From: a virus
Taxonomy: Duplodnaviria > Caudoviricetes
DNA: 64,000 nucleotides
Reading direction: 5' to 3' (one strand)
IMG/VR virus record: IMGVR_UViG_3300028886_000066
Span: 1-64,000 of that record
The stretch's first letter is position 1, and each line of letters begins with the position of its first letter. The notes beneath the pieces were generated by a model. It ran no database searches. It worked only from the letters and a program-made list of their open reading frames with translations, and was not told the DNA's origin. The position numbers and the translations under genes were made by a program. This document shows positions 30,892 through 56,668 of the stretch, in pieces.

Positions 30892-30924
30892 GTTTTTGAA
30901 GTGAAAACACTATTAAAGAGAATA

Positions 30925-33465
30925 ATGGAATACATTGATTTTTTGAGAAAAAAGATGGCCGTGAGCGCGGAGAACGGCTTCGATGTGTCTGATATGGAAC
31001 TGACACCATCCTTATTTCCGCATGTAAAAGACACTGTAAAATGGGCGATAAAGGGTGGTCAGCGTGCCATATTCAGCTCGTTTGGTATGCAGAAGACGGT
31101 GACGCAGCTGGAGATTCTGCGCCTTATCGCCTTACATACAAACGGAAAATGCCTCGTTGTGTGTCCAAGGCGAGTCGTCGTTGAGTTTGAGGAACAGGCG
31201 AAGAAACACGTAAACTTGCCTGTAAAGTATGTGCGGACGATGCAGGAAGTCAAGGAAAATGAGCAGGACTATGACGTCTTCCTGACGAACTATGAACGAG
31301 TACGTGACGGAGAAGACGGCGTAAGGATTGACCCTAACTATTTTGTCGCAACATCATTGGATGAAGCAAGCGTTCTGCGTCAGTTTGATACGAAGACATA
31401 TCAGACATTCCTTCCCCGTTTTGCTAACGTGAAATACAAGTTTGTTGCAACTGCTACGCCAAGCCCCAACAGGTATGACGAAATGGTTCAGTACGCTGGC
31501 TATCTTGGCATTATGGATACCAATCAGGCTATCCAGCGTTTCTTCAAGCGTGACCAGACGAAGAACAACAACTTGACGTTATATCCGAATAAGGTTGATG
31601 AGTTCTGGACTTGGGTGTCAACGTGGGCATTGTTTATCACCAAGCCCAGTGATTTGGGGTATTCGGATGAAGGTTTTGAGCTTCCTAAGCTGACGGTTAT
31701 TGATGAGGTTGTCGGGGTCGATAACGATACGGCTGGCTATGACGAAGACGGTCAGAAGCGAATGTTCCGCGATGCCGCCGTAGGCTTGCAGGCTGCTGCG
31801 AAAGAGAGACGTGACAATATGCCTGCAAAGATTGCGAGGGTGGTAGAGATTCTGAACCGTCCCGAGAATAAGGATGACCATTTTCTTTTGTGGCATGACT
31901 TAGAGGCAGAGAGAATTGCGTTGTGTAAGGCTATTGATGGTTGCAAAGCCGTTTACGGCTCTCAGAGCGACGAGGAAGCAGACAAGAATGTGCTTGACTT
32001 TAAGGAGGGACGTTTGAAGTATCTTGCCGCAAAGCCCGAAATGCTTGGTGAAGGTCTTAATTTCCAGCACCACTGCCACAAGGCAATCATGTTTATCGAC
32101 TACCGGTTCAATGACAAGTTTCAGGCTGTTGCCCGCATACACCGATTCATGCAGAAACACGAAGTGACGTTATATCTTGTTTATGCGGAGAGTGAGCAGG
32201 AAATCCATAAGACATTTATGCACAAATGGGCACGTCATAACGAAATGATTGAGCGTATGGCTCAGATGCTTCGCAAGAACGGATTGTTTGGGACTGACAT
32301 AACAAAGAAACTGGAGCGTTACTTATTCTCGCAGCGTGAAGAAGAAAGTGGCAAATTGTGGCGAAGTATCAATAATGACAACTGTCTCGAACTTCCGCAC
32401 ATGGAAGATAACTCAGTAGGGCTTATCGTTACATCCATTCCTTTCAGCGACCAGTACCAATACACATCGACGTACAACGATATGGGCTTTAATGATGGGA
32501 ATGATGACTTCTTTAAGCAGATGGGCTTCCTGACACCTCACTTGTTGCGTGTGTTGCAGCCTGGTCGTATAGCTTGCATTCATGTGAAAGACAGGGTATT
32601 GAGTGGCTATAAGGGCGGTACATGCTTTCAGACCGTCGTTCCATTCAGTGACTTGTCCGTGCTGCATTACATCAAGCATGGATTCAAGTATTGCGGACGT
32701 ATCACGGTAGATACGGACGTTGTGCAGGAGAATAACAAGTCGTATCGTCTGGGATATACGGAAATGTGCAAGGACGGAACAAAGATGTCGGTTGGCTGTC
32801 CTGAGTATATTCTGATATTCAGGAAAGAGCCGTCAGATACGAGTGATGCCTATGCAGACGTTCCTGTAACGAAGTCAAAGGATGAGTACTCACTTGCTCG
32901 CTGGCAGATAGATGCTCATGGCGACTGGAAGTCAAGCGGAAATCGTCTGCTTTCGTATGATGATGTAAAGAATCTTACACTTGAAGGCATACGTGAATAC
33001 TACAAGAAGTATGCTTCTGAGCATATCTATAATTACGAAGACCATGTAGCTTTCAGCGAGACACTTGAAGCGGCTGGCAGGTTGAGCAAGGAATCATTTG
33101 TGCTTGCGCCTATTTCTCATAAGGACTATATTTGGGACCTGAGTGAGTATCAGCGTGCCAAGACATTGAACACCAAGCAGGCGAAAGCCGACAAGCAGGT
33201 TCATATCTGCCCACTCCCGATAGACTTGGTAAACCGTTGTATTGAAAGATGGAGCAATAAAGGCGAGTGGGTATTTGACCCGTTCAGTGGTCTTGCCACT
33301 GTTCCGTATTGCGCTATCAAGTTAGGTCGGAAGGGAGTTGGTACTGAACTGAACTACGAATACTGGCGTGACGGTCTGACTTACCTGCGTGAGGCTGAAA
33401 TGGACGTTCTTTCGCCGACGTTGTTCGACTTCATGGGATTTGAGTCTGAAAATAGTCAGCCTTAA
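30925..33465 (+). CDS. SNF2-like helicase fused to an N4/N6 DNA methyltransferase
   Basis: FGMQKT, LDEAS, TATPSPN, GLNFQ..R.HRF; VTSIPF and DPFSG.ATV MTase motifs. Confidence 0.88.
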   Translation: MEYIDFLRKKMAVSAENGFDVSDMELTPSLFPHVKDTVKWAIKGGQRAIFSSFGMQKTVTQLEILRLIALHTNGKCLVVCPRRVVVEFEEQAKKHVNLPVKYVRTMQEVKENEQDYDVFLTNYERVRDGEDGVRIDPNYFVATSLDEASVLRQFDTKTYQTFLPRFANVKYKFVATATPSPNRYDEMVQYAGYLGIMDTNQAIQRFFKRDQTKNNNLTLYPNKVDEFWTWVSTWALFITKPSDLGYSDEGFELPKLTVIDEVVGVDNDTAGYDEDGQKRMFRDAAVGLQAAAKERRDNMPAKIARVVEILNRPENKDDHFLLWHDLEAERIALCKAIDGCKAVYGSQSDEEADKNVLDFKEGRLKYLAAKPEMLGEGLNFQHHCHKAIMFIDYRFNDKFQAVARIHRFMQKHEVTLYLVYAESEQEIHKTFMHKWARHNEMIERMAQMLRKNGLFGTDITKKLERYLFSQREEESGKLWRSINNDNCLELPHMEDNSVGLIVTSIPFSDQYQYTSTYNDMGFNDGNDDFFKQMGFLTPHLLRVLQPGRIACIHVKDRVLSGYKGGTCFQTVVPFSDLSVLHYIKHGFKYCGRITVDTDVVQENNKSYRLGYTEMCKDGTKMSVGCPEYILIFRKEPSDTSDAYADVPVTKSKDEYSLARWQIDAHGDWKSSGNRLLSYDDVKNLTLEGIREYYKKYASEHIYNYEDHVAFSETLEAAGRLSKESFVLAPISHKDYIWDLSEYQRAKTLNTKQAKADKQVHICPLPIDLVNRCIERWSNKGEWVFDPFSGLATVPYCAIKLGRKGVGTELNYEYWRDGLTYLREAEMDVLSPTLFDFMGFESENSQP

Positions 33466-33538
33466 TACTTTTGCAACGTGTTTTCAAATAATTCTTCAAA
33501 AATTTTGGGATAGTGTGTTTTTTGTATTTGTGCGTGCG

Positions 33539-33546
33539 TAACTTTG
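33539..33546 (+). promoter_or_regulatory. -7 element (TAACTTTG)
   Basis: TAnnTTTG. Confidence 0.6.
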
Positions 33547-34171
33547 CATTGTGAATCAAGTCGTGACGGACAAGAAACACAGGTGCAAAGCGAAGAAATA
33601 CGACTATCAAGGCTTAGGCACAAGATATATCATCCAAGCGGAACACCTACAACTCCTTAGAATCACTTTTGCTTTGCATTAGAATTCGCAACCCGTCACG
33701 ACGAGAGTTGCAAGGGTTTCGCTTGCTTTTATGCCAGCACTCCCAAAAGACATAGAGGTTCCATCAGTGGCCACCTCGCGGAAACTCAACATTTCGCAAT
33801 ACAAAAGGCCCCTTATAAAAACATTGTCGGTGTAGATGCGGCAAGAAACATCTTCGGGGGAGCAAGCCAATTTCTCGCTCTGTGCGTAATCCTCACAACG
33901 AGAGACTTACATGACTCGACAACCCGCTTCTTTCTTGACGTAAACGAAAACAAAGATAAGCCCGAAGAAATCGGGGGAGTGAGGGACGGAAGTGCTACAC
34001 TGGCTTGAACGAAACTTGGAGCAACTGCAAAGTTGATGTTGAGCAAAGTCCAATGTTGAAGTTCATTCTCGAAACAAGCCCAAATAGGTTTTACATCTTT
34101 TTATGGGGGAGTGAGGGAATAAAGGATTAAGTGTGCATAAACGAAATTTTGTTTGAAAAGAAAAAAGAATT

Positions 34172-34432
34172 ATGAGAATTAGACAAGCAATACAGGTTGG
34201 CAATAACGTGACCAACATTATGAGTCTTCCGTGCATAGAAAAGTGCGTGAAGCGGAATGACAAGAATGGCTTGGAGTGGTTGGAGTACGTGACTACGGAC
34301 GGCGACATCGTTGAGCGTGGTGACTGGCTGTGTGAGACGGATGAAGACAAATGGATGCCGATGAGTGATGAGGAATATCAAAAGTTTGCCAAAAATGAGA
34401 ATACCGAAAACGAAACGATTAAAAGCGTATGA
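34172..34432 (+). CDS. Hypothetical protein
   Basis: 86-aa ORF. Confidence 0.65.
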   Translation: MRIRQAIQVGNNVTNIMSLPCIEKCVKRNDKNGLEWLEYVTTDGDIVERGDWLCETDEDKWMPMSDEEYQKFAKNENTENETIKSV

Positions 34433-35106
34433 TAGTTCAAGCAATGACACCCGACGAGGTGTATAGGGAAATGGAGCTTGACATGCCAGAGGTGTCGCGT
34501 TGGTGGCTGAGACAGCGGGAGGTGCTTATTAAAAGAGCATTGAAGATGATGAAGTTCCCGATGAACGTCTGGTATGAGTACAAGAGCAAGCGGCATAACA
34601 GGTGGCTTGTGCTGGCGATGATAATGGGCAGGAAGTACAACAACACTGGCATGACGGCTGTTGTGACCCTGCAGAAGTGGGAGCGTGGCTACGCCATCTA
34701 CTACACGCGGTGGCCTTGGCAGGTGGCGGCAGACAGGATGGTGATTCAGCCGCACGTCTTCGACCGCTACGGCGAGCGCATGAAGGTGGGCAAGACAGGC
34801 ATTGAGCTGATAAAGCACTACATCGAGCGCAGTCCGCATGGCGAGCCTACGGACAACAGTCGCTTCTCTGGCAGGAGCGTGAGGTACGGCGGGCGTGACA
34901 ATGTTTGCCTGAGCATTCAGGACGGCGTGCTGCTTGGTGAGAATGTGAACGGGATTTTTGTTGCTCATACGTTCATTACCTACGACATGGCGGGTGGACT
35001 CCAAAAAGAGGAGTTCGAGAAAAACAGGGCGAAGGTAAGGAGCAATGAGCAACTGTTGAGAGATATTAAGAATTACATGGAATACTTAAAACAACAAAAT
35101 CAATGA
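34429..35106 (+). CDS. Hypothetical protein (PH.F.RY.ER motif)
   Basis: 225-aa ORF. Confidence 0.7.
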   Translation: MIVQAMTPDEVYREMELDMPEVSRWWLRQREVLIKRALKMMKFPMNVWYEYKSKRHNRWLVLAMIMGRKYNNTGMTAVVTLQKWERGYAIYYTRWPWQVAADRMVIQPHVFDRYGERMKVGKTGIELIKHYIERSPHGEPTDNSRFSGRSVRYGGRDNVCLSIQDGVLLGENVNGIFVAHTFITYDMAGGLQKEEFEKNRAKVRSNEQLLRDIKNYMEYLKQQNQ

Positions 35107-35471
35107 GAAACGTAGAATTAAGTGAACAGGAACTGTTCGATTTGAGAGATGAAGTGTGTAGGCACATCGAAGAGAATGTTGATGACGTGCTGGCTGAACG
35201 TATTGGCGACGCGATTCTGAATGCGATGGTAGGCCCTGACGGTAAGGACACTGACGAACTGAGCACAAGGAAATGCTTTGTGAACCTTGTCTATGCCGTG
35301 GCGACGTTCCTTGACGCCCTGCTTGAGATTACCAACAGGACTCGCCCGAAGGACAAGCAGTTCAAGTGCGAGCAGTTCGGTGAGGAGTTTAGCGACCACT
35401 TGGATGCTTTCTGCTGCGTAAATGACTACAAGCGGGAAGATAGAGCGAAGATGAAGGAGAGTGAAGATTAA
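35103..35471 (+). CDS. Hypothetical protein
   Basis: 122-aa ORF. Confidence 0.65.
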   Translation: MRNVELSEQELFDLRDEVCRHIEENVDDVLAERIGDAILNAMVGPDGKDTDELSTRKCFVNLVYAVATFLDALLEITNRTRPKDKQFKCEQFGEEFSDHLDAFCCVNDYKREDRAKMKESED

Positions 35472-35549
35472 GGAGTTAGGGGCTGCGCGACGGTGCGCGG
35501 CTCTCTTCTTTTGTTGGACTTAAATTACATTATCGGATGGAAAGTAACT

Positions 35550-36335
35550 TCACCACAGAGTAAGCTGCTGTTGCTCTCGTTGGATGCGTTTCTGTGCCCA
35601 ATCGACATAACGTGGCGATATTTCGCTGCCAATGTAGTTGCGCTTTTCGCGAATGCAAGCAATAGCCGTCGTTCCTGTCCCCATGAACGGGTCGTAGATG
35701 GTGTCGCCCTCCTTTGAGTACAACAGCAGGAGTTTTCTGCACAAGACCGTCGAATACGTCGCTTTGTGTATCGGACAAACCTCGTCATTGTTCGGAGCTT
35801 CCAAGAAGTTGAAGTAATTCTTGTAGTGCTGTTGACCATTCGGACGCTGCACGCCTTTCTCCTTGTAGCAGTTGAACGTTGAAAGCTCAGTCTTTCGGCA
35901 GAATACGAACACGAACTCACAGATGCGTGTCAGCTTGTTTGTGCTCTCGCTGTTCGGTGCTGCTGATTTCTTCTTCCAAATGATGCAATCGGCAATCGTG
36001 AACGGGGTGTTCTGCATGACGCTTGCAACTGTCAGCCACATGAGCGCGATGTTCTCCGATGAATAACTGAGGTTGTAGAGTATGCACCCGTTAGGCTTTA
36101 ACGTCTTGTCGAAAGCGTTGAAGATGTCGTTAGTCCATGCGATGTATTCCTCATTCGGTCGGCAGTCGTCAAACTCGTCGTACCTGATGTTTACGTCGGC
36201 AGCGTCCAACGATGACCCCTTGCGGCTTGTATTGTATGGCGGCGATGTCATTATGACGTCTACGGCCATAATCCTTTCCATCGTCTTTATGCAATCTTCG
36301 TTAAAAATCGTATTGATGTCTGCGTTACTTTCCAT
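35550..36335 (-). CDS. N4-cytosine/N6-adenine DNA methyltransferase (beta class)
   Basis: TSPPY, DPFMGTGTT, IGSEI. Confidence 0.92.
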   Translation of the reverse strand: MESNADINTIFNEDCIKTMERIMAVDVIMTSPPYNTSRKGSSLDAADVNIRYDEFDDCRPNEEYIAWTNDIFNAFDKTLKPNGCILYNLSYSSENIALMWLTVASVMQNTPFTIADCIIWKKKSAAPNSESTNKLTRICEFVFVFCRKTELSTFNCYKEKGVQRPNGQQHYKNYFNFLEAPNNDEVCPIHKATYSTVLCRKLLLLYSKEGDTIYDPFMGTGTTAIACIREKRNYIGSEISPRYVDWAQKRIQREQQQLTLW

Positions 36336-36520
36336 CCGAGAAAGTAGCGAATGAGCGTTACATTACGAAGATAAAGTAAGATTTAGGGAAATTTGCCTGT
36401 TTTTGCAGAAATGCTACAAAAACGGGACTTTGAATAGAGAATAATATGTTTTAGCAACGGCTAAACTCTAATTTTTGCGGGTGGGATTCCAACTAAGGAG
36501 TCTCACCCCTTTTTTGTGTG

Positions 36521-36850
36521 TTAGCAGGCTGAGATTTCAGCCGTAAATCGAATTGTGTCCTTTGTCGCAAGCTTGCCGTCTCTGTTCCATATTAATGCTT
36601 CGCACGGCTCTAACAAAAGTGTCTCATTCCCTTCTTCATCGACATTTGCGAAGAAATCAAACTCGTATTCGTGCCGTCTGGATAAAAAGATTATGTTCCA
36701 TACACCCAGCTCGTTTGCTATGCCTGTTGTTACGTCGATTGCTTCATTGTCAGGATGATTGGTTATAACATCTGTCAGGTCATCGTTTAGCACTGCTACT
36801 TTTTCAATTTTGAGTCCATTGACCTCAAATCTAATGGTAATTTTTTTCAT
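36521..36850 (-). CDS. Hypothetical protein
   Basis: 109-aa ORF. Confidence 0.6.
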   Translation of the reverse strand: MKKITIRFEVNGLKIEKVAVLNDDLTDVITNHPDNEAIDVTTGIANELGVWNIIFLSRRHEYEFDFFANVDEEGNETLLLEPCEALIWNRDGKLATKDTIRFTAEISAC

Positions 36851-36915
36851 ACATTTACAACGTTTAATCAGAGTAGTTATTGTGCTTTAGGGAGAAATTA
36901 ACCTCCCTGAAAGCA

Positions 36916-37761
36916 TTATGAGTTGAAGAACGACATCGCTTCGGTTGAAGCCTTCTGCTTGTTGACCTTTATGTAGCGTTCGGTCATGGAAAGCGATTGG
37001 TGTCCCATATACTGAGAAATCTCTGGAACTGGAACACCCTTTGATGCAAGGATTGAGGCGAACGAACGGCGAGCCGTATGTTGGCCAACTAATTCGTACT
37101 TCTCCTTGGTAATCATTGAGCCGTGGTAATAGAGCGTGACCAAATCGTCGATTCCGCACTTCTTGCACACTTCCTTTAGTATGCGGTTGGTCGTTGTGCG
37201 CGAATACTCCTTTGAGGGCTTGTGTTTGAACAAGTCCTTGATGCGGTAGTGTTCGGGAATGACGGCGAGCGTGTGAGTCTTCCGTGAGACGTAAGAGAGC
37301 AGTCCATCCTGAATGTTCTCGTAGTCCAAATCGGAGACGTCGTTTCCTCTTGCACCACAATAGCACTCGATGAGGAAAAGGTTGAGGACGTCGCGCGTGA
37401 TGTCGTTCTTCTTTTCGTGTGGCAGAGCCTGATAGTAGGCGTCGATGCGGTGAACCTCTTCTTCGGTGAGGGCGATGTTCTGCTGTGGCACTTTCTTGAC
37501 TCGGAGAATTTTGGCGAACTTCATAGTAGGTAGTTCGACTTCGTCGGACACCATGTTCAGAAAGCTCTTGACGATGGCGCAATAGGTAAATGCGCTGTTT
37601 GGCGTGACAGTCTTGGTGAGGTAGGACACGAAATCGGTGAGATTGATGGCCGTGAGGTCGCACCAGTTGACTTCTTCTTTCCCGATTGCAGCCCGCATAT
37701 ACCTTACGAGAAATTCGTAATTGGGATAGCGGTGAATGAACTCTTTTTCAAATTTTTCCAT
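36916..37761 (-). CDS. Second tyrosine recombinase (Xer-sized, no arm domain)
   Basis: CGAR..D, KT, HTARRSF, MGH....MT.RY; catalytic residues intact. Confidence 0.88.
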   Translation of the reverse strand: MEKFEKEFIHRYPNYEFLVRYMRAAIGKEEVNWCDLTAINLTDFVSYLTKTVTPNSAFTYCAIVKSFLNMVSDEVELPTMKFAKILRVKKVPQQNIALTEEEVHRIDAYYQALPHEKKNDITRDVLNLFLIECYCGARGNDVSDLDYENIQDGLLSYVSRKTHTLAVIPEHYRIKDLFKHKPSKEYSRTTTNRILKEVCKKCGIDDLVTLYYHGSMITKEKYELVGQHTARRSFASILASKGVPVPEISQYMGHQSLSMTERYIKVNKQKASTEAMSFFNS

Positions 37762-37931
37762 ATCATTTCAGTTTTAAATTAGACATAAAAAGGAGCGACA
37801 CCGCAAGCTGATGCGATGCCGCCTTACACTCAAAAAACTCTTGATTATGAGCCTCGCGGCTGATAAGCGTCCCGACTCTGGGTTGGCAGGGCGGGGACTG
37901 AATGGAAGTCACGGCGGGCGTGACGTGATGG

Positions 37932-38231
37932 TTAATCCTTGCACCATGAGGCACAGGGAACGCCGTACTTGTCCTGATTGTCAAGCATACGGTAGGCTTT
38001 GCGGACGGCCTCCATGCGCTGCTTGTAAGGCAGACGGGAGAGGCGTTCGCCAGCGTTACTGCATGACTGACAGTAGGCATCGTACTGCTGCTCCTGGTCT
38101 TCGCTCATTGCAAGGACTTCGTCGGTAGTCTTCTGATTTTCAACGTGGTTGAGGAAATAGAAGGCATCCTCTGTGTAGTCGTCAACGTCGATACACAGGT
38201 CAGGGATTGTGAGAGCTTGTTGTTTTTTCAT
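37932..38231 (-). CDS. Hypothetical protein translationally coupled to ftsK
   Basis: Start MKKQQAL overlaps the ftsK stop. Confidence 0.6.
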   Translation of the reverse strand: MKKQQALTIPDLCIDVDDYTEDAFYFLNHVENQKTTDEVLAMSEDQEQQYDAYCQSCSNAGERLSRLPYKQRMEAVRKAYRMLDNQDKYGVPCASWCKD

Positions 38232-39472
38232 ATATAGATGAAGCCTCCCAAGCGGCTTTTGATAACTTTGCATCCGTACTTGTTCACGTCGCTACACACT
38301 CCGTTCGGCAGTTGTGGGATTTCTTTTTGCTTCATTACCGTCTGTTCACAGTTATCGTACTCGTCGGCAACCTCGTCGCAGAGTTGGATAACCTCTTCGG
38401 TGGAGATATAGGCACACTGGCAGCGCGTGGTGTCGCCACCGTCGTAGAAGAGCATATCGCCCTTTCCCGTCAGTTTCTCAGCACCGATACGGTCGAGGAT
38501 GACGCGGGAGTCAGTACCCGTGACGGTACGGAAAGCGATGCGGGTGGGGAAGTTCGCCTTGATGCGGCCTGTTACGATGTCGGTTGACGGTCGCTGAGTG
38601 GAGATAATCATGTGGATTCCGACGGCGCGGGCTTTCTGAGCGATGCGGCAGATAGCGTTCTCCATTGCAGTTCCCTTTGTCTGCATGATGAGGTCGCCGT
38701 ACTCGTCGATTATTACGACGTAGTAGGGGAGTTTTCCGTTTTGGCCTGCGGGGGAAGCCGCAGGCACGGTGGCGTTGTACTCCTCGATGTTGCGGACGTT
38801 GGCCTGCTTCAGGAGAGTATAACGCTCTTCCATGATGTCGATGACGCAATCTAAGGCTTTCTGAGCGTTTTCTGTGTCGGTGATGATAGATTCGCCATCC
38901 GACGAGAGTTTCGCGATGTACGGCCTTGCTATGCGTTCGTAGACGGTCAATTCAACTTGTTTCGGGTCGATGAGAATAAGTTTCAGTTCGTCGGGACGCT
39001 TTTTATTGATGAGCGAGGCGATAATGACGTTGAGTCCGACTGACTTACCCATTCCAGTAGCACCAGCCACGAGCAGATGAGGCATCGTGGCGAGGTCGGC
39101 CATGAAGACTGAGTTGTCGGTACGGCGTCCCATGCAGAGCGGGAGAGCCATGTCGGTTTCGCGGTAGTCGGAAGACTCCAGCATATCGGCGAACGGAATG
39201 ACGTTGCGGCTGACGTTGGGGACTTCGATTCCGACCGTTCCGTTAGGCATCGGTGCGATTATCCGTACTGACGGCACTTTGAGTCCGACTGCAAATTCAT
39301 CCTTGAGATTGCGGATTTTGGAGATTCTGACTCCGTCGTTAGGTGTCAGCTCATAGAGCGTGACGGTAGGGCCAGCGACGGCATTGATGTCCTGATAGCC
39401 TATTTTGAAGCTATGCAGGATTTCGCCGATACGTCGCTTGGTCTCGATGATTTCCTTGTTACTGCGTTGCAT
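38228..39472 (-). CDS. ftsK: FtsK/SpoIIIE motor (alpha-beta only)
   Basis: GPTVTLYE, MPHLLVAGATGMGKS, IDPK..EL, IIDEYGDL, ARAVGIH....TQRPS, AEKL.GKGDML. Confidence 0.92.
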   Translation of the reverse strand: MQRSNKEIIETKRRIGEILHSFKIGYQDINAVAGPTVTLYELTPNDGVRISKIRNLKDEFAVGLKVPSVRIIAPMPNGTVGIEVPNVSRNVIPFADMLESSDYRETDMALPLCMGRRTDNSVFMADLATMPHLLVAGATGMGKSVGLNVIIASLINKKRPDELKLILIDPKQVELTVYERIARPYIAKLSSDGESIITDTENAQKALDCVIDIMEERYTLLKQANVRNIEEYNATVPAASPAGQNGKLPYYVVIIDEYGDLIMQTKGTAMENAICRIAQKARAVGIHMIISTQRPSTDIVTGRIKANFPTRIAFRTVTGTDSRVILDRIGAEKLTGKGDMLFYDGGDTTRCQCAYISTEEVIQLCDEVADEYDNCEQTVMKQKEIPQLPNGVCSDVNKYGCKVIKSRLGGFIYI

Positions 39473-39542
39473 TTTTTATTTTTTTGCATTGCCGAGTGAC
39501 TTCTCCTCAGCACAAGGCTTCACAGCAAGCCCGATTCGGCAA

Positions 39543-39550
39543 CAAAGTTA
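39543..39550 (-). promoter_or_regulatory. -7 element (TAACTTTG) upstream of ftsK
   Basis: TAnnTTTG. Confidence 0.6.
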
Positions 39551-39629
39551 AACAATAATTTTAAATAACACTTGTTTCCGCAAGGTAATTTAACACCTTT
39601 GCGGAAGATTTTCGGAATAGTTTACAAAA

Positions 39630-41330
39630 TTACGCCACCATTGACGTTTTCGGTGACGCGCACAGGATAACGTCGATGACATTGCATACTGAGCCGTCGG
39701 AGAGAGACACGACACCGTTCTCGATGCGCTCGATAGAAACGCCCGTGGAGAGGCTGACGAAATCGGCGAACCAGTCAGGGAGCGTACACTTGCGCTTGTC
39801 GGTAGGCAGCAGCAGCTCGGAAGAGACGTAGCAGAAGAGCCATCCCTTCAAGCGGATGAACGCCGTTCGCTTGCGCAGAGAAACTACTTTGACGATGCAG
39901 TCGTAGCCAGACGTCGTTTGCAGGATAGCAAAGTCGCCTGCATGGACACCATGAGAGTTGGCATCGACTTGCGGATTGTCTTCGTCAGAGACGTTCTCCA
40001 TGTCAATCTGCTGCATAGCGTCGAAGCGTCGGACGGTCTGAGCGTTACGCAGTTGTTCGCGTATCTCGGACTGAGAGCCGTACTTCAGGAACTCGCAGAC
40101 TTCACAGATAATGTCGGCCTTTGACTTGACTGAGCCGCCACCGAACATATCGCACATTCCAGATGAAGCGGATGACGCCTCGTTGTTGTAGAGGATGAAG
40201 ATACGCTTGAGCGTGTTCGTCTTCGCGCTGTTGATTGCATCGGCGAGAGCCTTGACGATAGGATTGGTGAAGTCGGCCACCGTCGATTCCTGATTGTCGA
40301 AAGCGAGATTGCTCTGACGAGAGAAACCAGACACAACCTGACCAAAGGCGATTCCCGTAGCGAGCGCGTGATAGCAGAGGTGGATGGCCTCGGCCATTTC
40401 GGACTCCAAAGAATACTCGTCGAGACTGATGTTCGTTGAAATCTCGGAGAGAGCCGTGATGATGTTCAGGCGCATACCAGCGAACTTGTTAATCTGACGG
40501 ACTGCATCGGGATTCTTCTGGAAAGCCTTGCCGATAAGCACGTTCTCCAGAATCTCCTTTGCCTTTGCGGAGATACGCTCGTTGCTTGCGCCGTCGAACA
40601 TTTCGGACATCTTCATCCCCGTGATGACCTTTGAGCGAATCAGCTCGGTCACGGCCTCGGATGAGGCTTTCTGACTGGAGTAGAACTCGGCGATAGTGTC
40701 AAAAGTATTGATAGAGCGGATGAGGCGTCGGAACGTCTCGTCGCTGACTTTCTTTCCCATTGACACGGCATCTTCGGTCTTGGACATTCCCTTTTTCTCG
40801 TCCTGATTGAACGCGGCGAAGATTTCCGTAGTGTACGGATATTCATCGTCGGCGACAAGGCAGATGCGCGGATGAGAGAATGACTTGACTTGCTCTTCGG
40901 TGAATCCGTACTTGTTGGGAAATTCTTGCAGGTAGCTAATGTACGCCTTGTCGGTGTCGTAGCGTGCTGCAATTATTCCCGCCATTGTACGTCCGTTACC
41001 AGAGAGGACGATTCCGTCCTTTGAGACGATTGGCGGTATTGTGAGAGCCTGCTCGTCGTAGTTGTCGGCTATTGAGCGCGTGACGGTCTGAGCGAACGTG
41101 TCGCGCTCGTAGTCTCGGTCGTTTACTGTCTGCCCGTTGGAATCGGTTGGGAATCCATCGGACTTGCAGAACGAGTCGAACGGATCGTGACTCGGAGTCA
41201 CTGCGCCCGATTCAGCCAGCAGGTAGCGTCCCTTGACTTTCAGTCCTGACGGCGTAGCGATTTTGTCGGCGTAGCCGTAGAGTTTCCGTGCATCGTCGAA
41301 GCGTTTGCGGATGAGTTGTAAGTTTTCCAT
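39630..41330 (-). CDS. ddrB-like ParB-superfamily domain protein
   Basis: PSHDP, NDRDY, PPIV..DG.VLSGNGRTMA; start at MENLQL where the conserved upstream motif lies. Confidence 0.75.
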   Translation of the reverse strand: MENLQLIRKRFDDARKLYGYADKIATPSGLKVKGRYLLAESGAVTPSHDPFDSFCKSDGFPTDSNGQTVNDRDYERDTFAQTVTRSIADNYDEQALTIPPIVSKDGIVLSGNGRTMAGIIAARYDTDKAYISYLQEFPNKYGFTEEQVKSFSHPRICLVADDEYPYTTEIFAAFNQDEKKGMSKTEDAVSMGKKVSDETFRRLIRSINTFDTIAEFYSSQKASSEAVTELIRSKVITGMKMSEMFDGASNERISAKAKEILENVLIGKAFQKNPDAVRQINKFAGMRLNIITALSEISTNISLDEYSLESEMAEAIHLCYHALATGIAFGQVVSGFSRQSNLAFDNQESTVADFTNPIVKALADAINSAKTNTLKRIFILYNNEASSASSGMCDMFGGGSVKSKADIICEVCEFLKYGSQSEIREQLRNAQTVRRFDAMQQIDMENVSDEDNPQVDANSHGVHAGDFAILQTTSGYDCIVKVVSLRKRTAFIRLKGWLFCYVSSELLLPTDKRKCTLPDWFADFVSLSTGVSIERIENGVVSLSDGSVCNVIDVILCASPKTSMVA

Positions 41331-41396
41331 AATCTTGAGTTTTAGTGATACATAAATTGTACGCACAGGTTGTTTTCGCAGCCCATGCGCTTTGTG

Positions 41397-41579
41397 TCAG
41401 TCTTCAGTGAAGGCATTTGCTTTCTTGAATACTTCGTAGACTCTGTTCTTTGCCTCGGCAATAGCCTCGCAAGCATCTGCATCGGAAACGAGTTTTGTAG
41501 CGTCGTTGTAACGCTCCATTTCGTGCAGGAGTGCAGTCACGATGATGTCGATTTCCTGCTTGTTGAATGTCTCTTTCAT
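41397..41579 (-). CDS. Small early-array protein
   Basis: 60 aa. Confidence 0.65.
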   Translation of the reverse strand: MKETFNKQEIDIIVTALLHEMERYNDATKLVSDADACEAIAEAKNRVYEVFKKANAFTED

Positions 41580-41834
41580 AATTCGTACTTAAATTGAGTT
41601 AAACTTTAGGTGAATTGTTTTTGTAGTTGCAAAAATATTCCTACTTTTGCAACCGAAAACCATGTGGGAGGTGTGCAAGACCTCCCTTTGGACTTACCGA
41701 AGCGAAACGGCCAACGTAACGCTGACGTGCCAAATTCTAATCGAAATGCTGAATCTCATAGAAACATGGTTTTTTATCCCTACACTTTACTATCTGGCTT
41801 TCGGGACTGCCAACCCGCTACACGTAACAGGATT

Positions 41835-42170
41835 TCATTCTGAGCGAACGAGACGTCTGACCTCGTCGTAGATTCGCAGCATATTGTCGATGGAGAGGAA
41901 GCAAGAACTGCCCCAGTACTCATCGTTGAACTGCGTGACGTAGAACTGGCTACCATTTCGGCTGTCCATGTAGGCAATACGGTCGGCAAGGATTGTCTCG
42001 CTTGTCTCGTTCTTGAAGTTGTGGAGAATCAGCGTATGACGAAACACGACATCCTGCCCGACTTCTGCTCCAAGCTGTTTCAGCAGCTCGATTGTCGATG
42101 TGGTTATTGACTCGCGGCACTCGGCTACGGCGTTGTTCACTCGCTTGTTTGTCTTAGTCTTGATTTTCAT
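41835..42170 (-). CDS. Early-array protein
   Basis: 111 aa, motif upstream. Confidence 0.7.
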   Translation of the reverse strand: MKIKTKTNKRVNNAVAECRESITTSTIELLKQLGAEVGQDVVFRHTLILHNFKNETSETILADRIAYMDSRNGSQFYVTQFNDEYWGSSCFLSIDNMLRIYDEVRRLVRSE

Positions 42171-42237
42171 AATTGTTGAGTTTTAATTGGTTAGACATAA
42201 ATTCGTGAGCCGCCCCGCGATTGGGCGTTTGCGGCTC

Positions 42238-42528
42238 TTAGAGAGACTTGTACTCTTCGTACTTTGTCTTCATACCAACAGGAGCGTAGACGTTCAGGGC
42301 GTAGTCTACAAGTGCTTCCTGCAAGTCCAAGTCAAGTTCAACAAAGAAATAGTTCATTACCGCATGACTTCCGTAATCGTCGTAGATTTGGTTAAACTTC
42401 CCTCTTAGATGGTTTTTGAGGTAGTTTTTTCCAGTCTTCTCGCAGATGTAGTTGATAAACTCTTCTGGATTCGGGTAGTTGTAGCCGAATTTCACAAAGA
42501 TGTGAACAAGTAGCATTTCTTTTCTCAT
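42238..42528 (-). CDS. Early-array protein
   Basis: 96 aa. Confidence 0.7.
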   Translation of the reverse strand: MRKEMLLVHIFVKFGYNYPNPEEFINYICEKTGKNYLKNHLRGKFNQIYDDYGSHAVMNYFFVELDLDLQEALVDYALNVYAPVGMKTKYEEYKSL

Positions 42529-42543
42529 AATCGTACTTTTGTT

Positions 42544-42702
42544 TTAGAGTTCAACTTCCTGTTCGATGTCCATAAGATAGCCCTCTTTTCCGCAATTCGG
42601 GAAAGCACAAGTGCCGTAATCGACGTACATTTCCGTCATGCAGCTGTTGCAGATGACGTGGTCTGGGCAGAAGTAGTTCACGTTGGAAAAATCTTTAATC
42701 AT
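42544..42702 (-). CDS. Small Zn-finger-like early-array protein
   Basis: 52 aa translated by hand (CNSC...CAFPNC), motif upstream. Confidence 0.65.
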   Translation of the reverse strand: MIKDFSNVNYFCPDHVICNSCMTEMYVDYGTCAFPNCGKEGYLMDIEQEVEL

Positions 42703-42777
42703 AATTGTTTGAGTTTTAAATTGTTAGACATAAAATTCGTACTCGGCAGGCAACTTTCGTGTCTGCCAAGCAGGGAG

Positions 42778-43026
42778 TTACGCTTCGATTTCGTCAAGCG
42801 TCAGTTCGATGGAATACTTTTCGAGCGCTTCAAACATCCATTTCTTACGGCGGTACTGTAACTCTGCCCAAGACTCGCGGTAGTCTTCATCTTTGTCGAG
42901 ACGGTTGGCTTCGCGACGAGCAATCAGATACTCGTTGATGTCGTTCAGGACTTCAGCCGTTTCCTCGAAGTCGAAGTCACGGCACATCATCTCGTTCAGG
43001 AGTTCGATAAGTGTCTGTTGTTTCAT
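42778..43026 (-). CDS. Acidic early-array protein
   Basis: 82 aa. Confidence 0.7.
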   Translation of the reverse strand: MKQQTLIELLNEMMCRDFDFEETAEVLNDINEYLIARREANRLDKDEDYRESWAELQYRRKKWMFEALEKYSIELTLDEIEA

Positions 43027-43304
43027 TCTTCCTCAAAGTTTAGGTAGAGATTCTGTCTTGCCATGTCGCAGTAATCAATGGAGCCAATCGGCTCGCACAA
43101 TTCCCAATCCATTTCCTCGTCGGTATGAAATTCTGGATTGCGACCTGAATAGATGCAGTTCACGTTTGAGCAGTTGAAAGCGGAAAGTGAGCCGTCGCTG
43201 GTGTCGTAGACAAATTCGATGCCCTTGTTTCTGGCTTCGCAGAGGACTGCGTTAAGTTTCTTCAAAACTTCGAGATGTTCGGTAGTTAATGCTTTTTGTT
43301 TCAT
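43023..43304 (-). CDS. Early-array protein
   Basis: Start MKQKAL with motif upstream. Confidence 0.7.
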   Translation of the reverse strand: MKQKALTTEHLEVLKKLNAVLCEARNKGIEFVYDTSDGSLSAFNCSNVNCIYSGRNPEFHTDEEMDWELCEPIGSIDYCDMARQNLYLNFEEE

Positions 43305-43459
43305 AATCATTTGAGTTTTTAAGGGTTAGACAATAAAAAGTGACGGCAATGAGTTTTTCGCTCAAAGCCGACTGCAAGTTTAGCATCACAAAGTCCACAC
43401 CTGAAATGAGGTGGATAGCGTGGGAGCTGGCAAAGCTGATTGCCTGCGCCCTGAAGAGT

Positions 43460-43690
43460 TTAGATGTTTGCTGTGCAGAAGAAATCGTCGTTCACAAAAC
43501 AAACGCCCTCGTAGTTCCTGAAAATCACGCAGTCAGGAACAATTTCGTCGGCGTTTGCTAAATCGAAATAGGACGGCTCGTTGTAGTCCACGTCTAAGAC
43601 TTCTGCAAACGTTCCCTCATCGGCGAGCTGTTCGAGATAGTTACATTTCAGCTCAGTCAGTTGTTCTCTTGTTAATTCTGTTACGTCCAT
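43460..43690 (-). CDS. Highly acidic early-array protein
   Basis: 76 aa. Confidence 0.7.
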   Translation of the reverse strand: MDVTELTREQLTELKCNYLEQLADEGTFAEVLDVDYNEPSYFDLANADEIVPDCVIFRNYEGVCFVNDDFFCTANI

Positions 43691-43693
43691 AAT

Positions 43694-43900
43694 TCATTTC
43701 AGATTAAGTTCACATTTGATTCCTAATTTCATACAGAGAAGTTCGTACTCGGCAAAGTACTTGTGGTCACGCAGGATTCCCTCTTCGATTTCATGTCTGA
43801 GAGTTTTTTCTGCCCGTTTGATTGCATCGACGTTGTGGTTGTTCTGCCAGAAGTCCCACAGATATTCGCCGATTGCGATTCTGATTTTGTCTAAGGTCAT
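43694..43900 (-). CDS. Early-array protein
   Basis: Start MTLDKI with motif upstream. Confidence 0.65.
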   Translation of the reverse strand: MTLDKIRIAIGEYLWDFWQNNHNVDAIKRAEKTLRHEIEEGILRDHKYFAEYELLCMKLGIKCELNLK

Positions 43901-43964
43901 AATCGTTTGAGTTTTAAGGTGAAACAATAAGTGCAATCGGTAACGTTTCCGCTACCGAAAGCGT

Positions 43965-44201
43965 TTAGAACTGGACTTGCGACACGAACCATTCTTCGCG
44001 GAATCCGTACTTTGCGGCGACTTGATTCCCTGTGCGTTGAACATTGCGAATGTCTCGGCGGTGTAGTCGTAGTCATCATCACAGAGGAAGACGAGGCGGG
44101 AATGTGAAAAACCATCGAAATCGATGGGTTTAAAGCCGTACTTCTTGCAGGTTTTCAAGAGCTGCTTCGAGTATTTTTAGGCAGTTCAACTACTATTTCA
44201 T
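43965..44201 (-). pseudogene. Frameshifted array cassette (restorable to MKIVVELPKKYSKQLLKTC...EEWFVSQVQF)
   Basis: ATG after the motif is followed by AAA TAG; three single-base insertions in homopolymer runs restore one ORF. Confidence 0.5.
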
Positions 44202-44213
44202 AGTCTCTGAGTT

Positions 44214-44447
44214 TTAATTGTTGATTAAATTCTTGATTTCTTCTTGTGTTTCGGTGACGCGGATTTCCTTATATTGGACTCCGTTGGTGTATTCGACTAA
44301 GGCGTAGGGATAGCCCCAATACTTCGCTTCGGATTCGTTTACATTCTCGAAACGGACGATGCAATCAGAGTTGAATGTCACCTTTGCGGTTTTCATCTCC
44401 TCTGTTGCGCCACTTGTAATAACTGTAAGGTCGATAAATTTTGCCAT
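44214..44447 (-). CDS. Early-array protein (FlbD-like pattern)
   Basis: FIDLT...FN.D.I..FE...V.ET.EEI. Confidence 0.7.
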   Translation of the reverse strand: MAKFIDLTVITSGATEEMKTAKVTFNSDCIVRFENVNESEAKYWGYPYALVEYTNGVQYKEIRVTETQEEIKNLINN

Positions 44448-44459
44448 AATCTTTGCGTT

Positions 44460-44690
44460 TTAATATTCAACTTTGATTCCACAACTTTTGATGATATTCT
44501 CCTGTGCTTTGTGTACGAAAGCAGGAGCGAAATAGCCATCAGTCCACATTATCAGTTCTCCGTGCATACCACGCTGATAACCGATGTAATGTGTTTCAAT
44601 AGCACCCGTGCTAAGCCCATGACTTTTTAGCACGTCAATAACTTTCTGTACGCACCCAGGGCGCGTTTCGAGATAATACAATTTGTTCAT
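44460..44690 (-). CDS. Early-array protein
   Basis: Start MNKLYY. Confidence 0.65.
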   Translation of the reverse strand: MNKLYYLETRPGCVQKVIDVLKSHGLSTGAIETHYIGYQRGMHGELIMWTDGYFAPAFVHKAQENIIKSCGIKVEY

Positions 44691-44745
44691 AATCTTAATG
44701 TTTTGAAATGTATAGTAAGCCACGCCGAAACTAATCCGTGTGACT

Positions 44746-44889
44746 TTAGTGGGGTAAAGTAACGTAAAGTGGCCAGACAATCAGATTACGCTCGTTCTTT
44801 ACGTCTTTAACGTAATACGTTCCGTTGTAGCAGTGTTCGCAAGTCGAAATTCGTCTTGCAATACAATCTTTGCAGCATTTGTACTTCAT
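44746..44889 (-). CDS. Small Cys-rich early-array protein
   Basis: MKYKCCKDC...CEHC with ATGA overlap. Confidence 0.5.
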   Translation of the reverse strand: MKYKCCKDCIARRISTCEHCYNGTYYVKDVKNERNLIVWPLYVTLPH

Positions 44890-45131
44890 AGTGCAGAAAA
44901 TTCCGTTGAAACATCTTTCCAGTCCGTAAACACCTTTGACACTTTGTCCCAATACTCTGTGCCGTTGTGTTTCCCCAGAGAAACCTCAATCGTGAAGAGG
45001 TGCATCGTCTTGAAATTTCCGTCATCGTAGATACGATAGGATTTTCCGTCCTTACCAGTCTTTCGCTCAATCTCTCTCGGAGCAAGCAGATAAGCCATTC
45101 TCTCAGCTTCGTTCTTGAAATTCTTTTTCAT
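44886..45131 (-). CDS. Early-array protein
   Basis: 81 aa, motif upstream. Confidence 0.7.
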   Translation of the reverse strand: MKKNFKNEAERMAYLLAPREIERKTGKDGKSYRIYDDGNFKTMHLFTIEVSLGKHNGTEYWDKVSKVFTDWKDVSTEFSAL

Positions 45132-45197
45132 AATCTTTTGAGTTTAGTGAAACAATAAATTTGTACCTTTGCGGAAAACCGATTCCGCAAAAGTAGT

Positions 45198-45356
45198 TCA
45201 GGAGATTCTTTCGAGACGTTTGTTTGCGCCTATCCAGTGATGCAGGACGGATGACGGCGATAAGTCTGCACTGTCGAACTCGTAGGTTTTCACTTCGTCG
45301 GTGTGGTCGTGGTTTTTCGCGGACATGGGATTGTAGGTGAGTCTGTATTTGGACAT
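45198..45356 (-). CDS. Small early-array protein
   Basis: 52 aa translated by hand (MSKYRLTY...). Confidence 0.5.
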   Translation of the reverse strand: MSKYRLTYNPMSAKNHDHTDEVKTYEFDSADLSPSSVLHHWIGANKRLERIS

Positions 45357-45360
45357 GGCC

Positions 45361-45573
45361 TTAGATATTTACGAAGTAGAGCCACGAATTAATCAGCGAA
45401 ATCTCGTCATCGTTGACTTTTTCAGAAAGTTCATCCAGAGTGAGGATGTCTGCCTCGTCATATCCGAAATTGGATGCAATGTTAGCGAGGTCGTACTTCT
45501 CTCTGTCGCTCATCTTTACCAACTCGTCACGATTGTAAGAGTCGGCGGAAAATAATAATGCGTAAGTTTTCAT
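45361..45573 (-). CDS. Acidic early-array protein
   Basis: 70 aa, motif upstream. Confidence 0.7.
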   Translation of the reverse strand: MKTYALLFSADSYNRDELVKMSDREKYDLANIASNFGYDEADILTLDELSEKVNDDEISLINSWLYFVNI

Positions 45574-45643
45574 AATTCTTTGAGTTTAATAAGTGAAACA
45601 TAAATTTGTAGAGTAGGGGAAACTAATCCCCAGACTCCGACGG

Positions 45644-45913
45644 CTACATCTTTTCGGGATTCCAGATGTCATCCTTTGTAGCCCATTTCTCAATCTTCTC
45701 GCCACAAACCATTGCGTGAACAAGGAAAAGAAGATTGCGCGTACTTGTAGAACTGCATTTCATCATGCAGAGTCCGACACCTCGTCTCAGGAAATACCAG
45801 AAATCAGGCTCATTTTCAGTTCCGCAATTATTGACGGTTGCGGTAATGAACACGTTTTTCTTTGCAGCGCACTTGATAGCGTTTGAAACCAAATTGTCAA
45901 TACAATACTTCAT
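45644..45913 (-). CDS. Early-array protein
   Basis: 89 aa, motif upstream. Confidence 0.7.
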   Translation of the reverse strand: MKYCIDNLVSNAIKCAAKKNVFITATVNNCGTENEPDFWYFLRRGVGLCMMKCSSTSTRNLLFLVHAMVCGEKIEKWATKDDIWNPEKM

Positions 45914-45970
45914 AATCTTTAGAGTTTAGTGAAACATTTGCGATGTTTGGGACATTTCTGCCCCAAACTT

Positions 45971-46204
45971 CTACGCAGCAATCTTTTCGCGCACCTTAGC
46001 GACTTTCTCAGGTGTATCGAACCAGCACCGACCGTCAATGCAGTAATACTGCAAATCATCTTGTGGAACGTGATAGACTTCAATCACTTTCTCGTCAGTT
46101 ACTTTCTCGGCAAACTGCTTAACTTCTTCTTCTGTCAAATCGTAGGTGTAAACAAGGCAGTTGTCGCCATTCTCGAAATTCACGAATAAATTCTTTACTT
46201 CCAT
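45971..46204 (-). CDS. Early-array protein
   Basis: Start MEVKNL with motif upstream. Confidence 0.7.
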   Translation of the reverse strand: MEVKNLFVNFENGDNCLVYTYDLTEEEVKQFAEKVTDEKVIEVYHVPQDDLQYYCIDGRCWFDTPEKVAKVREKIAA

Positions 46205-46271
46205 AATCTTTGAGTTTTTAAGTGAGACATAAAATTCGTACTTCGCAGGACATTCCAGCCCTGCAAAGCGG

Positions 46272-46610
46272 TTAGATACAAAAGTCCGATTCATACCCGC
46301 CTTTGTTGTCAGGCCACATCGGATAATTTGTAAGGATGAATCCAAGATGATAGAACGGGAACTTGAACTTTGCCACATTTGAGCCATCATCAAGCAATCC
46401 CAAAAGCGGCTTGACCATTTCCGTAGCCTTTTCGTCAATGTACTTTTCAGAATACCACCATGCCAGAGGCTCGTTTGCAAACATTGCACGCATTATATTC
46501 TTGATTGATTCTTTTATCTCATCAAGATTGTCACTGCTGGAAATGTTCAGAGAATGAGACTCTTGCGTGTGACAAGTGGTCAGGTACAGATAAAATGCTT
46601 TCTTTTCCAT
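46272..46610 (-). CDS. Early-array protein
   Basis: 112 aa, motif upstream. Confidence 0.7.
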   Translation of the reverse strand: MEKKAFYLYLTTCHTQESHSLNISSSDNLDEIKESIKNIMRAMFANEPLAWWYSEKYIDEKATEMVKPLLGLLDDGSNVAKFKFPFYHLGFILTNYPMWPDNKGGYESDFCI

Positions 46611-46676
46611 AATTTTTGAGTTTTAAAGTGAATACTAATTTTGTACTTCGCAGGAAAATTGATTCCTGCAAAGTGT

Positions 46677-46877
46677 TTACTTTCCGTAATTTGGATTCGG
46701 CACTCGCGTTTCAGTTATCCGCACTCTTGCACCTGCCTCACGATAGCCAGCAACGTCACGGCGAACGTCGGAATACTTTTCTTCTGGCTTAAAGTAAGAA
46801 CATTCGATTTCCCATCCGTAGCCGTAGTTTGTCCAGATATTCCATCCGTACAGATACTTGTTTTCTTTCTTTTTCAT
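46677..46877 (-). CDS. Early-array protein (NYGYGWE motif)
   Basis: 66 aa, motif upstream. Confidence 0.7.
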   Translation of the reverse strand: MKKKENKYLYGWNIWTNYGYGWEIECSYFKPEEKYSDVRRDVAGYREAGARVRITETRVPNPNYGK

Positions 46878-46941
46878 AATTCATAAAGTTTTAAAAGTGA
46901 AACATAAGCGACTCAGGGAAGAATTAACCTCCCCGAATCTT

Positions 46942-47343
46942 TCAATGAAGAGTCAAGCCTAAAAGTTCGTATGTCGTCATACCCATTTCGCGGATAGGCT
47001 CTGCGAGAATGGCATGATTCAGATGAGGACATTTTGTTGAGCCGATTTTTTCATCCTCTGCAATGAACTTTCCGACTTTGAGAAGAACCCATCTCTGATT
47101 TGTTTCGGGATAGACTCTTTTCATCGTGCAGAGCAATTCCGTAACGTCAACATAAACATCGAATTTAGAATACTCGTAAGCCAGATAAGTCTCACGGTCA
47201 ACTTGTTTGCCGATTTCTTTTTCGTACTCGTCAAAAAGAGCTTGATGTTTCTTCCAGCTGATTTTCCCGTTTTTGTCAAGAATACTTTTGCTGAAAATCT
47301 CGCCTTCCAGACTCTTGATTGTTGAATAATCATACTTTGCCAT
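46942..47343 (-). CDS. Early-array protein
   Basis: 133 aa, motif upstream. Confidence 0.7.
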   Translation of the reverse strand: MAKYDYSTIKSLEGEIFSKSILDKNGKISWKKHQALFDEYEKEIGKQVDRETYLAYEYSKFDVYVDVTELLCTMKRVYPETNQRWVLLKVGKFIAEDEKIGSTKCPHLNHAILAEPIREMGMTTYELLGLTLH

Positions 47344-49862: not shown

Positions 49863-49865
49863 AAC

Positions 49866-56663: not shown

Positions 56664-56668
56664 ATGTT

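Follow-up and report, generated by a model that had tools for sequence, protein, structure and literature searches.

The window analysed here, positions 1-64,000 of the 104,673-bp IMG/VR phage record IMGVR_UViG_3300028886_000066, carries on its minus strand, between 36916 and 41330, a small tyrosine recombinase, a 99-aa open reading frame (ORF), a soluble FtsK motor and a gene with a ParB-like domain. Pfam comparison and an ORF check confirmed these four genes on this strand, with the identities and positions that the initial annotation had given them. Inverted pairs of short dyad sites around DNA-modification genes in this phage and its relatives suggest that inversion switching, which the initial annotation overlooked, is a main activity of the recombinase. 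We regard the reading as a whole, in which a Xer-type module flips phage modification genes with FtsK as an accessory, as having about an even chance of being correct. The conserved unit would consist of a tyrosine recombinase of about 280 aa, a helical partner of 80-110 aa and, in most members, a soluble FtsK. The recombinase would act on short dyad sites whose arms resemble TTACATTA or GTTACTTTC around a spacer of 6-7 bp; recombination at inverted pairs would flip modification genes of the adjoining operon, or their 5′ parts, and so produce switching, phase-variable phage methylation, and unpaired sites with an AT-rich spacer may serve multimer resolution or circularization. We compared 32 related contigs, taken from ENA, Logan and IMG/VR, and seven complete or near-complete genomes of 103-110 kb.

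Three dyad sites, designated L, R and T, cluster at a DNA methylase gene of the window, where about none would be expected by chance. Site L (TTACATTA-TCGGATG-GAAAGTAA; 35525-35547, plus strand) and its inverted partner R (36324-36348, minus strand) form a 16-bp exact inverted repeat, TCGGATGGAAAGTAAC, that brackets the N6/N4 DNA methylase gene (35550-36335, minus strand; Pfam N6_N4_Mtase, E-value 3e-39) some 600 bp from the recombinase gene. Site T (TTACATTA-CGAAGA-TAAAGTAA; 36358-36379, plus strand) lies 20 bp beyond this pair. Because the inverted repeat (site R) contains the ATG of the methylase, the ORF is intact in either orientation, and the segment, which is flanked by terminator-like hairpins, is a candidate invertible cassette in which recombination between L and R would invert the methylase gene. 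In this genome four copies of the site are present, the inverted partner R among them, against about zero expected. A further dyad site of the window type, ACATTA-CTCATC-TAAAGTA, is found outside the window at genome position 86404, in the gap directly after the gene for a 2570-aa structural protein.

The relatives provide both orientations of such a segment. Contig L008 encodes a methylase orthologue that is 65 % identical and lies in the opposite orientation within its own 17-bp inverted repeat of the same arm type, and the methylase cassettes of L013 and L017 match with 74 % nucleotide identity in reverse orientation while their flanking genes are unflipped. Inverted repeats bounding a segment that occurs in both orientations, the mark of invertible DNA, are thus present across the relatives; the differences in orientation are between related phages and not within one population.

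The motif ACATTA-N6-TAATGT is present in two to seven copies in each of four complete genomes (G001, G002, G007 and G010), again with about none expected. The inverted pairs, in which the two spacers are identical, enclose either whole genes (N6/N4 methylase, phosphoadenosine phosphosulfate (PAPS) reductase and others) or the 5′ parts of N6/N4 and C5 methylase genes. Among eight bracketed segments that were checked, seven contain a DNA methylase or PAPS-reductase gene and one an unannotated ORF of 310 aa. Individually bracketed modification genes (N6/N4 and C5 methylases, a PAPS reductase), whose site pairs have unique spacers and which sometimes form three cassettes in a row, are seen in the window (35525-36379) and in G001 (54619-57900 and 64963-65203), G010 (62910-65937), G002 (6554-7217) and G007 (54259-54528). 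When the 205 bp between the arms in G001 were flipped in silico, a truncated C5 methylase of 205 aa became one of 261 aa, which aligns from residue 1, motif I included, with the C5 methylases of G002 and G007. In sequence terms, such restoration by a flip is characteristic of an on/off inversion switch.

The recombinase (36916-37761, minus strand; 281 aa) is the size of the Xer and Cre enzymes and matches the Pfam family Phage_integrase (PF00589) with an E-value of 1.4e-13. It consists of core-binding and catalytic regions only, with no arm-binding domain, as in Xer proteins, and the full catalytic set (R138, K161, H228, R231, H254 and Y263) is invariant in the relatives. Its scores are nevertheless far below the curated Xer models: the best NCBIfam match is XerA (55.6 bits against a cut-off of 220), with lower scores for XerD (37.5 against 329.6), XerC (33 against 335) and XerS (17 against 267). 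A terminator-like hairpin with a 12-pair stem and a T run (37794-37823, minus strand) stands directly upstream, followed by a leader; in relatives a hairpin and the leader GTCTAATTTAAAA are conserved. The recombinase is a core gene of the family, being found in seven of the seven complete genomes and always together with a large integrase; in the window the latter is a Bacteroides-type protein of 429 aa (11906-13195), so the recombinase is indeed additional to an integrase, as first proposed.

Two candidate enzymes are thus available for the inversions, since each of the five complete genomes searched (G000, G001, G002, G007 and G010) encodes exactly two tyrosine recombinases, and no serine recombinase was found in these five. 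The small recombinases of G001, G002, G007 and G010, which share ACATTA-type sites, are 56-80 % identical to each other and at most 45 % identical to the others, whereas the large integrases of the same four genomes do not cluster; that of G001 is 74 % identical to the integrase of G006, a genome without such site pairs. Likewise, window-type sites are restricted to loci whose small recombinase falls in the clade of the window's own. As the type of site tracks the small recombinase and not the large integrase, we assign the inversions to the former, which is most likely the enzyme acting on the dyad sites. The sites were also considered as copies of a host dif, an identity that was rejected since none of five ruminant Bacteroidales assemblies, together about 12.6 Mb, contains the motif.

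An alternative that we consider improbable is that the recombinase acts in the manner of an integron, moving cassettes of one gene each (methylases, PAPS reductase, HNH) into and out of TTACATTA-type sites and so building a hypervariable modification operon, with inversions as by-products. Contigs of one relative join 35524 to 36358 with eight shared letters (TTACATTA), exactly at two direct half-sites and leaving one site, from which the cassette appears to be absent in that relative, although the contigs are short pieces with only 27 letters on one side of the joint. The arrays of adjacent single-gene units in G001 and G010, each unit with its own site pair, would also fit cassette capture, as would the great differences that even close relatives show from the recombinase up to the conserved replication genes. 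The spacers of L and T differ, however, and tyrosine recombinases do not normally recombine such sites; no circular cassette form was seen. The identity of the enzyme as an integron integrase was itself rejected, the match to TIGR02249 reaching 25.3 bits against 265 and covering only the C-terminal 50 residues.

The second conserved component is FtsK. A motor-only FtsK is encoded in 26 of the 32 contigs, and in all 26 a recombinase of about 280 aa is adjacent and co-oriented, which upholds the link between the two genes drawn in the initial annotation. Adjacency is kept even though the gene order is swapped once (in L030) and the small ORF can lie on either side of FtsK. In several relatives the reading frames of the two genes overlap or nearly do so. 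The arrangement recurs across dozens of independent metagenomic contigs and so is not a matter of chance. Wherever FtsK is found the recombinase is found too, but the reverse does not hold, as the complete genomes G001 and G002 carry the recombinase and no FtsK. The trio of ParB-like gene, FtsK and recombinase suggested earlier does not hold as a conserved unit, since the ParB-like gene is near the module in only nine of the 32 contigs and in two of the seven complete genomes; the unit is better drawn as small ORF, FtsK motor and recombinase. Independent assortment in relatives, which had been named as grounds for abandoning the trio, was observed in part: the presence of the ParB-like and FtsK genes is not tied to that of the recombinase, and the trees of FtsK and of the recombinase are incongruent, but wherever FtsK is present it adjoins the recombinase.

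The FtsK protein of the window (38228-39472, minus strand; 414 aa) matches FtsK_alpha (8e-22) and FtsK_SpoIIIE (2e-48) in Pfam, and its residues 7-364 align with the motor of Pseudomonas aeruginosa FtsK (PDB 2iuu). Like chromosomal FtsK and SpoIIIE proteins it has the alpha and beta motor domains with Walker A (GATGMGKS), Walker B (VVIIDE) and the arginine finger, and carries a TQRP motif; Walker A, Walker B and QRP are invariant in eight relatives. It begins inside the alpha domain, at profile position 17, which leaves no room for an N-terminal membrane domain, so that the septum-tethering domain and linker of the chromosomal proteins are lacking, as judged from start position and length with no transmembrane predictor run. 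About 45 residues follow the motor, and these gave no Pfam match to a gamma winged helix even at an E-value of 10. The description of this FtsK as lacking both membrane domain and gamma is therefore correct. Phage homologues are 394-468 aa long, compared with 800-1040 aa for Bacteroidales host FtsK. Upstream of the gene (39473-39629, minus strand) is a region with a Bacteroides-type -7 box, TAACTTTG, an element common only to the window and L003, the other relatives having the usual hairpin and leader before FtsK.

Within the phage lineage FtsK identity falls to about 50 %, and the host and phage motors are 49-54 % identical. All phage FtsKs form one clade, sister to that of the Bacteroidales hosts, from which we infer a single old capture of the motor from a Bacteroidales host followed by retention. 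The longer phage FtsKs are extended at the C terminus by some 90 residues that show an 'E-x-G-I-I' pattern, and this extension is predicted to fold as a winged helix (predicted local distance difference test score, pLDDT, 83). When compared with the gamma domain of P. aeruginosa FtsK (2ve8), which ranks among its best structural matches, it gives a Z score of 4.9 and a root mean square deviation of 2.5 Å over 55 of 65 residues, a result that ties with other winged helices; no Pfam gamma match was found in the long-form relatives, and the structure shows only a generic winged helix. Judging by these models, the ancestral phage FtsK was probably an alpha-beta-gamma protein without the membrane part, and gamma was probably lost in this phage and its closest relatives, leaving the motor only. 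In a scan of species-representative genomes with an FtsK alignment, only full-length Bacteroidales host FtsK genes were found, with no such recombinase nearby and no integrated prophage copy, and a related-locus search with this single FtsK as query returned no close relatives.

Host FtsK works only at the septum, and its gamma domain reads the FtsK-orienting polar sequences (KOPS) and activates XerD. By analogy with FtsK and XerCD at dif, the phage FtsK may be an accessory of the recombinase, a septum-independent motor or activator whose solubility would allow Xer-type reactions anywhere and at any time; gamma-less forms would keep the motor functions only. Such a partnership would fit the constant adjacency of the two genes, the precedent set by FtsK and Xer in bacteria and the gamma-like domain found in relatives, although what FtsK does is the least secure element of this account.

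It is also conceivable, though we think it unlikely, that FtsK works independently of the recombinase as an early host-takeover or anti-defence motor, the two genes being neighbours only through their position at the end of an early-gene array. Such a motor might strip DNA-bound proteins, form dominant-negative hexamers with host FtsK and so affect division, or process DNA. FtsK does sit in an array of small genes, each preceded by a hairpin and leader, that includes the anti-defence domains ddrB-ParB, LPD11 and MutS_I; PHROGs places the phage FtsKs in its host takeover category; comparison of the trees indicates that FtsK was lost at least three times; and motors so similar to those of the hosts could conceivably form mixed hexamers. 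Against independence stand the unbroken adjacency in the face of surrounding changes in gene order and the overlapping or near-overlapping reading frames.

A number of observations also weigh against the preferred reading, in which the module flips modification genes with FtsK as accessory. No strand-change joints were found in public Logan contigs over 31000-44000, where coverage is patchy and rare orientations are not detectable, and an independent assembly of the same phage (L223) is 100 % identical, the orientation of the cassette included. G006 and G009 have the recombinase with no recognizable site pairs; inverted repeats at 58-65 kb in G006 were rejected as sites, being inside large structural ORFs and having the appearance of protein repeats. 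Distances between the dyad sites and the recombinase gene range from 0.6 kb up to about 20 kb, and a plus-strand terminator-like hairpin before the left site (35479-35504) complicates a simple on/off logic for the cassette of the window. With respect to FtsK, G001 and G002 have none and yet carry several switches and a single site, so FtsK is not needed for inversion; the domain through which FtsK activates Xer in known systems is missing from the FtsK of this phage; lineages without FtsK are scattered on the recombinase tree, which disagrees with that of FtsK; and the adjacency could be inherited synteny at the end of the early array. Separately, exact-pattern scans with the start of the window methylase and an exact look-up of its protein gave no matches in viral and metagenome contigs.

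The small ORF between recombinase and FtsK (37932-38231, minus strand; 99 aa) has an ATG that overlaps the TGA stop of FtsK (ATGA). Homologues of 80-110 aa are present in 26 of the 32 contigs, before or after FtsK and also in phages that lack it, so that the small ORF accompanies the recombinase both with and without FtsK. Its structure model is all helical with a pLDDT of 96, a helical bundle; no match was found in Pfam, PHROG or NCBIfam, nor in the PDB with Foldseek. The suggestion that this ORF replaces gamma was not borne out, since it coexists with the winged helix in relatives, is missing beside some gamma-less FtsKs such as that of L030 (in the flanks that were fetched), occurs without FtsK and folds as a helical bundle. 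A functional precedent for a small protein travelling with a recombinase is XafT of the Vibrio satellite phage TLC-phi, which activates a Xer recombinase without FtsK (PMC6744903). XafT acts on the host XerD, and the small ORF was rejected as a member of its family given the lack of any sequence, family or structural match, but by analogy it could have an XafT-like activator role.

A single dyad site, S (TAACATTA-TATATAA-TAAAGTAA; 54867-54889, plus strand), is unpaired and lies about 305 nt upstream of the DUF5906 replication gene. In five of the seven complete genomes, G001, G002, G007 and G010 among them, one unpaired site whose spacer is AT-rich occupies the matching position, in the long intergenic region about 300-700 nt before the DUF5906 start; the G007 site is GTTACATTA-TATTCA-TAATGTAAC, and the arms change along with the local type of site. 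From its sequence and position, S could be a dif- or lox-like site for multimer resolution or circularization, in which FtsK would find a natural task, or alternatively an operator. A GC-rich tract with about 20 copies of GGGCAG, all on the plus strand, lies at 52340-53290, about 1.6 kb from S, and could be an origin, a pac site or iterons. It was rejected as KOPS, being a one-sided local array with no genome-wide polar skew in a phage whose FtsK lacks gamma.

These single sites raise the further possibility, which we also hold to be unlikely, that the module is devoted to autonomous multimer resolution, or to circularization of injected DNA, at one site, in the manner of P1 Cre at lox or XerCD at dif, with FtsK driving or activating the reaction away from the septum and cassette inversion as a side activity. 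The conserved position and covarying arms of the site, its dif-like architecture of inverted arms around a 6-7 bp spacer, the core status of a recombinase that FtsK always adjoins, the gamma-like winged helix retained in relatives and genome ends that point to circular or terminally repeated genomes of about 105 kb would all agree with this. On the other hand, the site could be an operator, two complete genomes with a single site have no FtsK, the FtsK of the window is gamma-less, and the large integrase carried by these phages means that an episomal state is not indicated. Neither a ParA nor a partition ParB is present, with the limit that no ParA-type match was found in the adjacent genes scanned, no dedicated ParA search was made and parS was not searched. 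Of the resolution and segregation module proposed in the initial annotation, resolution is partly rescued by the conserved site upstream of the replication gene, whereas segregation, with its ParB component, is not. Combining the two activities, it is possible, though we would lean against it, that a phage-owned FtsK-Xer-type system controls an invertible array of modification genes (a 'phasevarion') and resolves multimers near the origin, with an FtsK free of the septum; one phage population would then have many methylation states, a hedge against diverse host restriction.

Segregation falls because the ParB-like protein (39630-41330, minus strand; 566 aa) belongs to the class of P1 DdrB and not to the partition ParBs. 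Its N-terminal domain matches PF18763 (32 bits, cut-off 27.6) and includes the conserved Arg motif as GNGR; its C-terminal 370 residues belong to no known family and, when used as query in an atlas search, matched only other viral ddrB-ParB proteins. There was no NCBIfam match. Identity as a ParB of a ParABS system was rejected, since only the ddrB-ParB subfamily matches and the gene is missing from most relatives. The ddrB-ParB family, named for DdrB of the Dar anti-restriction operon of phage P1, is characteristic of polyvalent proteins with anti-defence roles (PMC5512222). The window protein resembles these in its PF18763 domain, in its Arg motif and in having neighbouring genes that encode further domains of this class (in this phage an SNF2-methylase fusion, in relatives LPD11 and MutS_I), but is encoded by a stand-alone early gene rather than being a virion-packaged protein beside late genes, and has no metallopeptidase domain. 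As far as sequence allows, it is a separate, P1 Dar-like early anti-restriction protein outside the conserved module. Beyond it, on the minus strand from 41331 to 52040, are about 30 small genes, each behind a hairpin and a near-invariant leader abutting the ATG. The leader consensus, approximately TTATGTTTCACTTAAAACTCAAAGATT, is present on the ddrB-ParB gene, as a variant on the recombinase gene, and not at all on FtsK in this phage; since the conserved leader precedes the ATG at 41330, this codon and not the GTG at 41366 is taken as the ddrB-ParB start.

The SNF2 fusion just mentioned, an SNF2 helicase joined to an N6/N4 methylase (30901-33465; 854 aa), lies in the replication and modification operon, is kept in relatives (842 aa in L006 and L007) and has a polyvalent-protein-like architecture. 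Between the recombinase and the methylase cassette is a 109-aa ORF (36521-36850, minus strand) with no Pfam or PHROG match, and a palindromic element, GTTTTTGTA...GCAAAAACAGGC, is conserved in the window (36400-36460) and in several relatives (about 9900-9960 in L004 and 9340-9400 in L008), where two operons converge downstream of the recombinase. Genes for HNH/NUMOD homing endonucleases (window 59872-61020; L002 9701-10648; L003 9757-10629; L008 11887-12450) recur at variable spots, including directly downstream of the recombinase in close relatives, and may be an added source of mosaicism in this region. The record is listed as 'linear', and a 126-bp direct repeat is present at window positions 1-126 and again at genome 104541-104666, ending 7 nt short of the end of the record. 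The genome is by this repeat essentially complete, circular or terminally repeated, and probably about 104.5 kb long. Sequencing runs containing the stretch are bovine and other animal gut metagenomes, and the family is one of rumen and gut Bacteroidales phages of about 105 kb.

FtsK and Xer are machinery of the host chromosome that mobile elements borrow. This lineage of phages instead keeps its own motor-only FtsK beside its own Xer-like recombinase over a long divergence. If the recombinase flips methylase genes, then phase-variable epigenetic switching would occur in phages also, and on orphan methylases, which would bear both on the ways in which phages of the gut and rumen deal with numerous restriction systems and on the interpretation of methylation-based host assignments of metagenomic phages. 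Sites of about 22 bp and an enzyme of 281 aa might also make a compact recombination tool for Bacteroidales. No description of an FtsK-recombinase phage module or of invertible phage methylases was found in the literature searched, the coverage of which was incomplete.

Among known systems, FtsK-XerCD-dif (with its XerS/difSL and XerH/difH counterparts) is similar in having an alpha/beta motor, a simple recombinase of about 280-300 aa with the full catalytic set, sites with inverted arms and a 6-7 bp spacer, and a winged helix that in the phage relatives occupies the gamma position. It differs in that the FtsK here is encoded by a phage and is soluble, lacking membrane domain and linker and, in the phage of the window, gamma as well; the recombinase is far below the XerC, XerD and XerS models and also occurs without FtsK; and most of the sites are inverted pairs around genes, which would give inversion and not deletion. 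P1 Cre-lox, P1 Cin and Mu Gin offer the precedent of large temperate phages with a site-specific recombinase beyond their lysogeny functions and short sites serving resolution, cyclization or inversion, but Cin and Gin belong to the serine recombinases and invert genes for tail fibres, and Cre has no FtsK partner and showed no sequence relationship to the enzyme described here beyond the tyrosine-recombinase fold. The epigenetic invertons of bacteria, in which tyrosine recombinases invert Type I hsdS genes phase-variably (PMC7672463, PMC7096588), likewise have short inverted repeats flanking methylation genes or parts of them, a tyrosine recombinase in the same element, and a flip that changes the methylase made. 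The phage cassettes depart from these in holding orphan methylases of a Type II-like kind (N6/N4 and C5) as well as a PAPS-reductase gene, and in that whole genes or 5′ segments would be turned on or off, with several switches in a row, rather than hsdS specificity domains being exchanged. The module is thus a variant of the FtsK/Xer systems and of the epigenetic invertons in a new setting, that of a phage.

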